This document shows, piece by piece, positions 1 through 680 of a stretch of 680 nt of DNA; the stretch's first letter is position 1, and the number at the start of each line of letters is the position of its first letter. The DNA is from Escherichia coli (GTDB taxonomy: Bacteria; Pseudomonadota; Gammaproteobacteria; Enterobacterales; Enterobacteriaceae): the NCBI RefSeq assembly GCF_003334385.1, contig NZ_QOWN01000151.1; one strand, written 5' to 3'. The notes beneath the pieces were generated by a model. The model worked only from the letters and a program-made list of their open reading frames with translations, ran no database searches and was not told where the DNA came from. The position numbers and the translations under genes were made by a program.

Positions 1-680
1 CTGAAACGTATTTTGCCTGGTAACGGGCGTCATCAAGTGCATTATGGCGCTCACCTTCGAATGGAATAGCCGTTCTGGCATCGAAGTCTATGGCTTTCCC
101 CAGCTCAACGATTGTGCGTACATCGCGATCGTTGTAGTAACGCCACGGGCAGGGGATCCCCTGCCGTTCGTATGAACGGCGCAAAATCGTGTTGTCGAAG
201 TTGGCTCCATTTCCCCAAACCTGAACAAAAAATTCACCGGAGTTTTCGTCGATAAATTCCCGCAATTGTAACAGTGCATCATCTAACGGGATTTCATCGG
301 TCATAATGGCAGATTGCGCTTCGCGTGATTGCTTAAGCCACCATTTAATGGTGTCCCGATCAATGACTCCGCCAGCAGTTTCCAGATCGATAGTCTTACT
401 AAATTCCGGTCCCATATCTCCGGTTTGCGGATCGAAAAATATTGCACCTATTGAGATGATCGGGGCATCAGGATTTTTTCCCATGGTTTCAAGGTCGATC
501 ATTAGATGGTCACACGTCCTGCTGGTGGATGTGATTTCTTGATGACCGTTCACCTTAATTGAGTGATCTGCCGTCTCGCCAGTTTCATTATCGCTATCGT
601 GATGCTGATTGCCGCCAGTGTTCTCCTTGTGTGGATGTTCAGCGCCTTCCATTTCCTCCGGATCATCTTCCTGAACTTCA
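1..680 (-). CDS. Internal fragment (no start or stop in window) of a DnaQ-like DEDDh 3'-5' exonuclease domain protein, preceded by an acidic His-rich linker; possibly part of a prophage RecE/exodeoxyribonuclease VIII-like multi-domain nuclease
   Basis: Seen in sequence: the minus-strand frame with codons 302-304, 299-301 etc. has no stop codon from 679 to 2 (about 226 codons), against roughly 10 stops expected by chance. Translation contains Exo I LMIDLETMG followed by a hydrophobic strand PIISIGAIFFD, Exo II VWGNGANFDNTIL, and Exo III ERHNALDDARYQAKYV, matching the order and spacing of DEDDh exonucleases. The RecE-like attribution is from recalled domain architectures and is unverified. Confidence 0.85.
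2..508 (-). other. DEDDh 3'-5' exonuclease catalytic domain, truncated at its C-terminal side by the window edge
   Basis: Predicted catalytic residues: Exo I Asp at 494-496 and Glu at 488-490 (IDLET); Exo II Asp at 194-196 (ANFD); Exo III His at 44-46 and Asp at 29-31 (HNALDD). A His in Exo III defines the DEDDh rather than the DEDDy subgroup. Motif I to II spacing is about 100 residues and II to III about 50, typical for the fold. Confidence 0.75.
148..165. repeat. Perfect 18-bp palindrome ggcaggggatcccctgcc, centred on GGATCC/GATC, inside the coding sequence
   Basis: Seen in sequence: positions 148-165 equal their own reverse complement; symmetry breaks at 147/166. It encodes RQGIPCPW in the main minus-strand frame. 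It can be read as a 7-bp GC-rich stem (ggcaggg/ccctgcc) with a gatc loop. Confidence 0.9.
521..679 (-). other. Acidic, His-rich low-complexity segment, probably a disordered inter-domain linker N-terminal to the exonuclease domain
   Basis: Translation EVQEDDPEEMEGAEHPHKENTGGNQHHDSDNETGETADHSIKVNGHQEITSTSRT is dominated by E, D, H, G, T and N, has no hydrophobic core pattern, and is in frame and continuous with the exonuclease domain. Confidence 0.6.

Follow-up and report, generated by a model that had tools for sequence, protein, structure and literature searches.

A lambdoid-prophage gene of Escherichia coli predicted to join a RecE-like scaffold to a C-terminal DEDDh exonuclease domain

Features of the locus

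The window, by which we mean the whole 680-nt stretch of E. coli DNA that was analysed, holds an internal segment of one minus-strand prophage gene. Its features are listed below in window coordinates; amino acids (aa) are numbered in the 226-codon window translation or in the 830-aa protein, as stated.

2..679, minus strand: internal coding segment, codons 592-817 of an 830-aa lambdoid-prophage protein (open frame; 100% identity to the NCTC86 locus L001; dN/dS 0.17-0.29)
557..679, minus strand: acidic, His-rich linker (protein aa 592-632; homologous stretch of RecE, aa 551-591) that closes the RecE-like scaffold
509..565, minus strand: module junction and short connector IKVNGHQEITSTSRTCDH, protein aa ~630-648; the RecE similarity ends here and the Pfam domain starts at window aa 58
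2..508, minus strand: predicted DEDDh (DnaQ-like) 3'-5' exonuclease domain of the Rv2179c/DexA family, window aa 58-226, protein aa 649-817
488..496, minus strand: putative Exo I motif D-x-E within MIDLETMG, window D62 (494-496) and E64 (488-490), protein D653 and E655
194..196, minus strand: putative Exo II Asp within WGNGANFDNTIL, window D162, protein D753
29..46, minus strand: putative Exo III motif H-x4-D, HNALDDA, window H212 (44-46) and D217 (29-31), protein H803 and D808
88..282, minus strand: spurious 64-aa open reading frame (ORF) in the +1 frame of the real gene (dN/dS ~1.1-1.2; stops in 2/3 diverged copies)
306..542, plus strand: spurious 78-aa ORF, antisense to the real gene (stops in 3/3 diverged copies)

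Apart from the coding sequence, nothing was evident in the window: an Rfam scan (E<=0.1) detected no RNA family, and a repeat search detected no direct or inverted repeats.

One open frame crosses the window and is under coding constraint

Six-frame translation of the window showed that the minus-strand frame from 679 to 2 comprises 226 codons without a stop, while each of the other five frames contains 7-23 stops. When the window was shuffled with its mononucleotide composition preserved, an open run of at least 226 codons arose in 1 of 20,000 shuffles. The initial annotation had described this frame as open across the window and had noted its absence from the accompanying list of ORFs, and both statements proved correct. 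The list reports only ORFs closed within the window, and frame 679..2 is missing from it because the gene overruns both window ends and never closes inside.

The only listed ORFs of at least 60 aa are 88..282 on the minus strand and 306..542 on the plus strand. Both overlap the real gene, as had been proposed. The former lies in the +1 frame, since its start at 282 is one base downstream of the main-frame codon start at 283, and the latter is antisense. The ATG at 302-304, likewise read earlier as an internal methionine rather than a start, is internal because it encodes residue Met126 in the window translation, which is Met717 in the full protein. An ORF list limited to the closed ORFs of a short window thus hid the real gene and displayed two spurious overlapping ORFs.

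We compared the window with three diverged copies, L008, L007 and L006, which share 93%, 83% and 78% nucleotide identity with it, respectively. In the long frame, third codon positions accounted for 31 of 51 differences (L008), 74 of 153 (L007) and 83 of 151 (L006), and the Nei-Gojobori dN/dS was 0.17, 0.29 and 0.20, respectively. Inside the exonuclease domain alone, dN/dS was 0.06-0.23 across the three copies, while the two other minus-strand frames gave values of 0.86-1.27. These results show that coding constraint acts on the long frame and not on the tracked ORFs. Taken together, the third-position bias, the low dN/dS and the stops in the tracked ORFs indicate that the long frame is the gene and that the tracked ORFs are by-products.

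The L007 copy carries three stops in the main frame. We considered them as a sign that the window is non-coding and rejected this interpretation, as the L007 copy contains an IS insertion and a frameshift.

The full gene and its prophage setting

Many E. coli chromosomes contain the window at 100% identity, and many temperate Escherichia phages at 99-100%. A match was present in 4,701 of 5,426 complete E. coli genomes, and it covered at least 80% of the window in 4,053 of the 5,426. In NCTC86, the window corresponds to L001:6001-6680 and lies within a 2,493-nt coding sequence (L001:5960-8452, minus strand; WP_021533631.1, 'exonuclease'). The product has 830 aa, of which the window encodes codons 592-817. 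This identical copy places the start codon 1,772 nt outside the window on the right and the stop codon 39-41 nt outside it on the left. Extension in both directions, which the initial annotation had recommended for the contig, was made in identical genomes and located the true start and stop. The view that the gene spans the window was borne out, but most of the gene lies outside it, namely 591 codons upstream and 13 codons downstream.

In NCTC86, the coding sequence belongs to a lambdoid prophage integrated beside ompW. It is flanked by xis-int on one side and by DUF1482/ydfD-like, dicB and rha genes on the other, and phage vB_EcoS-640R1 has the same gene arrangement. Truncated, frameshifted and IS-disrupted copies of the gene are common, and the copy in the source genome is known from the window fragment alone.

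PGAP and phage records annotate the gene, Pfam and PHROGs include the domain, and precomputed Pfam matches already give 'Exonuc_VIII + Rv2179c-like' plus the YdfE_C family. It is an ordinary gene whose annotation thousands of E. coli genomes and phage records already carry, so its existence is no discovery. Literature searches on Rv2179c and phage, on RecE/DEDDh/prophage and on ydfE found no functional study of the fusion protein.

Some E. coli proteins appear as 'standalone 180-aa' versions starting with MIDLETMG (e.g. P0048). These were considered as evidence for an internal start and rejected; at the P0048 locus, no gene is called in a 2-kb stretch upstream, which fits a long gene that has been broken. 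Some homologues are truly standalone, for instance P0112 of Salmonella, and in Salmonella prophages standalone versions of the domain are found in the slot just upstream of xis-int.

The C-terminal domain is predicted to be a DEDDh exonuclease

The window translation matched the Pfam family PF16473 (Rv2179c-like) with E=1.3e-66 and 224 bits, from aa 58 to aa 226 and over model positions 2-174 of 177. This agrees with the earlier expectation of an Rv2179c-like or phage-type 3'-5' exonuclease family. With the full protein, the match reached E=3.4e-67 and model positions 2-177, and the domain runs on to about protein aa 820, beyond the window. The match of the window translation to the Pfam family RNase_T was weak (7.7e-05). 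Among the PHROGs, phrog_255 was matched at 2.9e-79 and phrog_2082 at full length; the T4 DexA coding sequence is annotated with phrog_255. The identification of the frame as a DEDDh exonuclease gene was thus upheld, but the exonuclease domain occupies only window aa 58-226, and the first ~41 aa of the window translation are a RecE-homologous acidic linker.

The complete DEDDh motif set that had been read from the translation is present, namely D62/E64, D162 and H212/D217. The Exo III histidine is the mark of the DEDDh subtype. From the 12,170 cluster representatives that an exhaustive HMMER search returned (E<=1e-3), we analysed the 129 best of those covering nearly the full domain. In these representatives, the Exo I Asp was conserved in 129/129 and the Exo I Glu in 127/129, the Exo II Asp in 126/129, and the Exo III His and Asp in 128/129 and 126/129, respectively. 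The pentad was aligned and invariant with T4 DexA, with the probable EcD described below and with standalone homologues.

Searching the PDB with phmmer found only the T4 DexA entries 8KEL and 8KEN, with 8KEL the best at E=1.5e-06; the search with the whole 830-aa protein gave nothing for the N-terminal 630 aa. A profile search with A1 against the PDB also had DexA as its sole match, at an E-value that is circular because DexA is in the profile. We then considered an AlphaFold2 model of aa 632-830, built from an alignment of nine sequences that included DexA. Its mean pLDDT was 83 and its pTM 0.81, and the first 13 residues had a pLDDT below 50. Foldseek placed DexA first (E about 1e-11, TM 0.73; a match that is not fully independent, because DexA is in the alignment behind the model), followed by RNase T, REXO2, 3'hExo and Orn. 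In total, 136 PDB matches were obtained at E<=1e-3, and the best 50 of the 136 were all DEDD-type exonucleases, among them DexA, RNase T, REXO2, 3'hExo, Orn, ERI2 and the PolC exonuclease domain. The catalytic pentad, combined with the RNase H-like alpha/beta fold predicted by the model, places the protein in the DEDDh superfamily. The sequence-level evidence for the domain is independent of the AlphaFold2 model.

The protein resembles RecE up to, and not including, the RecE nuclease

Residues 1-255 of the protein match the K-12 Qin prophage pseudogene ydfE at 96% identity. BLASTP aligned aa 262-632 with residues 278-591 of K-12 RecE (38% identity, E=8e-60) and detected no RecE similarity past RecE aa 591. 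The RecE nuclease, a PDDEXK DUF3799 domain, occupies RecE aa 615-850, and Pfam found no PD-(D/E)XK domain match in the 830-aa protein. Against the NCBIfam exodeoxyribonuclease VIII equivalog NF007259, the protein scored 269.5 bits compared with a curated cutoff of 1269, and only aa 245-632 were aligned, to profile positions 270-602 of 877.

The DNA comparison gave the same boundary. Rac recE (L003:5623-5738) shares 84% identity with window nt 565-680, and the match goes no further than 565; similarly, the megablast match H25, a Rac-type recE, covers just 565-680. Because RecE similarity ends at this place in both DNA and protein, the window holds the junction between scaffold and nuclease head. 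The swap point, at nt ~557-565, corresponds to RecE residue ~590, just before the RecE nuclease domain. The linker region was predicted with low confidence. Judged from these alignments, the protein is a modular chimera in which the PD-(D/E)XK nuclease of RecE is replaced by a DEDDh domain on the RecE scaffold.

Such fusions form a recurrent group. Among the 129 family representatives, 14 are long DEDDh fusions (at least 500 aa, with the domain C-terminal); all 14 matched the N-terminal or middle region of RecE, and 0/14 matched the RecE nuclease domain. One of the 14, P0122, corresponds to RecE 1-592 at 88% identity and then continues with the DEDDh domain. Gene order also distinguishes the two forms. 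recT follows directly after the genuine PD-(D/E)XK recE genes (L003, L004), whereas it was not found after the DEDDh-headed genes at seven loci (L001, L002, L006, L008, L039, L040 and L041). At those seven loci, xis/int usually comes directly after the gene, with other genes in some of them.

Residues linked to HREX activity

EcD has been reported to be a DNA exonuclease that protects against T4 (PMC12153337). In the same study, published in NAR in 2025, DexA residues W152 and D169 were proposed to read 5hmC, and the loss of the tetramer residue D90 (Ala78 in EcD) was proposed to make EcD selective for modified phage DNA (PMC12153337). Using a 17-mer of the forward primer given in PMC12153337, we recovered a 189-aa sequence from IMG/VR prophage contigs. 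Position 78 of this sequence is Ala, and the 3' end fits the reverse primer except for one extra A; we regard it as probably EcD. This probable EcD and the window domain are collinear and share 37% identity (E=2e-36).

The window protein is homologous to DexA and keeps the catalytic residues. At the position of DexA W152, however, it has Tyr773, which is aromatic but not Trp, while EcD has W. The position of D169 is taken by Lys786 or Ala787, depending on the alignment, and in EcD by E in a 7-sequence alignment and by Ser in the family alignment; a DexA-specific insertion makes the alignments uncertain near D169. The Trp and acidic residue proposed to read 5hmC are therefore not seen in the window protein, with the reservation that applies to D169. 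At the position of D90, the window protein has Asp725, so the loss proposed for the defence-type variant is not seen; D or E is present in 13/14 long fusions, and Ala in EcD. These results identify the protein as a member of the DexA/EcD family and do not support a 5hmC-specific mechanism.

Proposed function and alternative explanations

The best explanation, to which we assign a probability of about 0.88, is that the window is an internal fragment of a lambdoid-prophage gene for a DEDDh 'exonuclease' of ~830 aa on a RecE-like scaffold. The gene has its place in the early-left operon, between dicB/ydfD-like genes and xis-int. The window contains the last ~40 residues of the RecE-homologous acidic linker, the short connector and nearly the whole C-terminal DEDDh domain. 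Following established DEDDh enzymology, this domain would act as a two-metal-ion 3'→5' exonuclease that takes nucleotides off 3' ends. Its substrate would most probably be DNA ends, because the closest characterised relatives, T4 DexA and the probable EcD, are DNA exonucleases. The flexible acidic linker would tether the predicted exonuclease to the RecE-type N-terminal scaffold. From the early-left operon position, expression would be expected mainly after induction. Candidate roles are DNA end processing or nucleotide scavenging in lytic growth, or the exclusion of other phages.

Two competing accounts question the identity of the gene itself. That the tracked ORFs 88..282(-) and/or 306..542(+) are the real genes, with the long frame open by chance, would fit their being the sole closed ORFs of at least 60 aa in the window, but its probability is negligible: a run as long as frame 679..2 was seen in just 1/20,000 shuffles, the long frame matches Pfam at E=1e-66, the alternative minus-strand frames have a dN/dS of 0.86-1.27, and diverged copies interrupt the first ORF in 2/3 and the second in 3/3 cases. 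The other account takes the gene for exodeoxyribonuclease VIII (RecE), a 5'→3' dsDNA exonuclease acting with RecT in recombination. Several phage records annotate it so, homology to RecE 278-591 is real in the middle region (aa 262-632), and window nt 565-680 share their 84% identity with Rac recE. Against this stand an equivalog score of 269 bits, far under 1269 and confined to profile positions 270-602, the lack of a counterpart to the catalytic PD-(D/E)XK domain of RecE, in whose place lies a DEDDh domain of predicted opposite polarity, and the absence of recT behind the gene at the seven loci. We therefore consider this account extremely improbable overall, and for the catalytic domain the exodeoxyribonuclease VIII reading is already refuted. 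The protein is not one of the 5'→3' recombination nucleases of the RecE/exonuclease VIII type. Some records say exodeoxyribonuclease VIII because the protein is a RecE-scaffold/DEDDh chimera, and such labels are an over-transfer from the common RecE-like scaffold.

The remaining alternatives accept the DEDDh domain and differ on what it does. It could be an exoribonuclease like Rv2179c or RNase T that trims the 3' ends of RNA, such as host or phage transcripts or small RNAs. The best Pfam family carries the name of the Rv2179c exoribonuclease, the structural neighbours that follow DexA are RNase T, REXO2 and oligoribonuclease, and the PGAP names for the gene include '3'-5' exoribonuclease'. 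We nevertheless think this rather unlikely, as the closest solved structure and the common PHROG are those of T4 DexA, a DNA exonuclease, EcD, the nearest characterised prophage homologue, degrades DNA, and the domain takes the place of a DNA nuclease on the RecE scaffold. DEDDh enzymes often act on both DNA and RNA, so the choice between the two is a question of degree. Another proposal makes the protein an HREX-type anti-phage nuclease like EcD, which would degrade the 5hmC DNA of T-even phages and spare host DNA. EcD is a member of the same family (collinear, 37% identity, E=2e-36), is likewise prophage-borne and protects against T4 (PMC12153337), and the module is very widespread, with a copy covering at least 80% of the window in 4,053/5,426 complete genomes. 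However, the reported 5hmC-reading residues of DexA are not conserved (Tyr for W152, Lys786/Ala787 for D169), and D90, whose replacement by Ala in EcD is proposed to explain host-DNA sparing, is Asp here. PADLOC returned only a weak, generic match to a CRISPR-associated DEDDh model (1.7e-05), so this is not a catalogued defence protein, and the position in the pL early operon would suggest expression on induction rather than in the lysogen. We consider this proposal rather unlikely as well.

Within the favoured explanation, that of a prophage DEDDh exonuclease on a RecE-like scaffold, a broader idea can be put forward tentatively, although we hold it to be on the unlikely side. The RecE N-terminal region may be a conserved scaffold or targeting module for swappable heads, and its DEDDh-headed version a prophage weapon. 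The heads would be either a PD-(D/E)XK 5'→3' nuclease accompanied by RecT, or a DEDDh 3'→5' nuclease without any SSAP. The weapon might serve superinfection exclusion or the degradation of host or foreign DNA. It would be related to EcD/HREX but mechanistically distinct, because the proposed 5hmC-reading residues are missing. Roughly three quarters of complete E. coli genomes carry the DEDDh-headed version, for which exonuclease VIII is a routine mislabel. The domain belongs to the DexA/EcD family, which has recently been tied to phage-host conflict, and its fusion form is very common.

Comparison with known systems

T4 DexA (exonuclease A; 8KEL/8KEN) shares its Pfam family and PHROG (phrog_255) with the window protein, keeps the DEDDh pentad and is the best PDB match both by sequence (E=1.5e-06) and by Foldseek of the model. 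Its D90 has an equivalent Asp in the window protein. The identity between DexA and the window domain is only 25-29%, however, and DexA is a standalone protein of 227 aa with extra loops and helices that are absent from the window domain, whereas the window domain forms the C-terminus of an 830-aa protein of a temperate prophage. DexA W152 is replaced by Tyr, and D169, which lies in or next to the DexA-specific insertion, has no acidic counterpart.

E. coli EcD (HREX, GenBank HAK9828821.1) is likewise a prophage-borne DEDDh exonuclease of the DexA family. It differs in being a standalone protein of 189 aa from another prophage context, beside a DNA methyltransferase, and in having W, E (in one alignment) and Ala at the 5hmC and D90 positions, where the window protein has Y, K/A and D.

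M. tuberculosis Rv2179c, the founder of PF16473, is a DEDDh enzyme with an RNase T-like fold (Abendroth et al. 2014). The family match of the window protein is strong (224 bits), and phmmer and hmmsearch gave no direct sequence match to the Rv2179c PDB entry. Rv2179c itself is encoded on the mycobacterial chromosome as a standalone protein and is reported to act on RNA, whereas the window protein is a prophage fusion.

Rac RecE occupies the same niche: it too is encoded by a large gene that ends the early-left operon close to xis-int, and it has the homologous middle region and acidic linker, including the CxxC...CxxC motif. In the window gene's protein, the N-terminal 255 aa are of the YdfE type and not of the Exonuc_VIII type; other family members, such as P0122, share the RecE N-terminus too. 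The head of RecE is a PD-(D/E)XK nuclease (5'→3') with recT, whereas that of the window protein is a DEDDh domain (3'→5', predicted) without recT. K-12 ydfE, finally, was cut by IS2 and is without everything that the window encodes, but it has the same neighbours, dicB and ydfD, and the window gene is the intact form of ydfE.

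Chimeric, truncated and partial copies of the prophage exonuclease gene

The C-terminal DEDDh exonuclease domain was also found behind an N-terminus of the type of RecE, exonuclease VIII of the Rac prophage, at the following loci:

L007:2618-5039, copy in Stx2a phage JNE160313, RecE-type N-terminus joined to the DEDDh domain
L039:5001-7418, P0122 (805 aa), clean chimera with the DEDDh domain placed after RecE residues 1-592 (88% identity)

The copy in Stx2a phage JNE160313 carried a frameshift near position 3866, and an IS3-family element truncated its C-terminus after '...DFDART'. 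Because this copy is disrupted, the megablast match to its locus spanned only positions 72-671 of the window. The P0122 gene was surrounded by a Rac-like early region with kilR, ydaE and sieB; recT, the partner of RecE, was missing at this locus, and xis/int came directly after the chimera gene.

Outside the window, the full protein of the NCTC86 prophage (L001) contained a zinc-ribbon-like CxxC-x7-CxxC motif (CTACGQTGGGNCPDCG) at aa 558-572, in a region regarded as non-catalytic, which was conserved with RecE aa 517-531. A Pfam search of RecE returned an insignificant Zn_ribbon_3 match and nothing else for this motif. The Gln/Asn-rich linker at aa ~520-545, likewise outside the window, contained a tandem 7-aa duplication (QNSPNAL QNSPNAL QNEPETK), to which a 21-residue gap in the RecE alignment corresponds.

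The ydfE pseudogene in the Qin prophage of K-12 MG1655 (L009:4079-4999) showed 96% identity to the full gene (L001:5960-8452) over the N-terminal 255 aa. K-12 ydfE is the N-terminal part of the window's gene, truncated by IS2, and the window-encoded region has been entirely lost from K-12. In-frame internal deletions were detected in the homologues P0060 and P0073, in which the DEDDh domain is reduced to its back half and directly adjoins the YdfE N-terminus. Exo I, the D-x-E motif, was absent from both proteins because the deletion leaves only this back half, and both are presumably decaying prophage copies.

The majority of close protein-database matches to the gene product were labelled 'partial'. 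The gene is multi-copy, a single genome having as many as 8 places that match, and draft assemblies are evidently often broken at it, thereby inflating the count of apparent short 'exonuclease' proteins.

Standalone homologues and the probable EcD locus

Homologues annotated or occurring as standalone proteins were as follows:

L036:3008-5543, P0048, '180-aa standalone' E. coli homologue, whose first residue is precisely the Met of MIDLETMG (window 500-502)
L037:3743-5570, P0112 (189 aa), genuinely standalone homologue in a Salmonella prophage

For P0048, an internal start at this Met was disfavoured by the ~2 kb upstream, in which no gene was called; the gene caller probably salvaged this protein from a long gene that has been disrupted. 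The P0112 gene was placed between a DndB-like gene directly before it and xis/int immediately downstream.

The forward primer published for EcD, the E. coli HREX defence exonuclease, recovered its probable gene:

L012:6404-6970(-), probable EcD gene (PMC12153337), IMG/VR prophage contig

Between the reverse primer as printed (PMC12153337) and the 3' end of this gene there is a difference of one extra A. The gene adjoined a DNA methyltransferase gene, with an integrase nearby, and the same arrangement was observed in further IMG/VR prophage contigs (L013, L015, L016, L025 and L027). Given these prophage contigs and the methyltransferase and integrase neighbours, the 'bacterial' HREX defence gene (PMC12153337) therefore appears to be prophage-borne.
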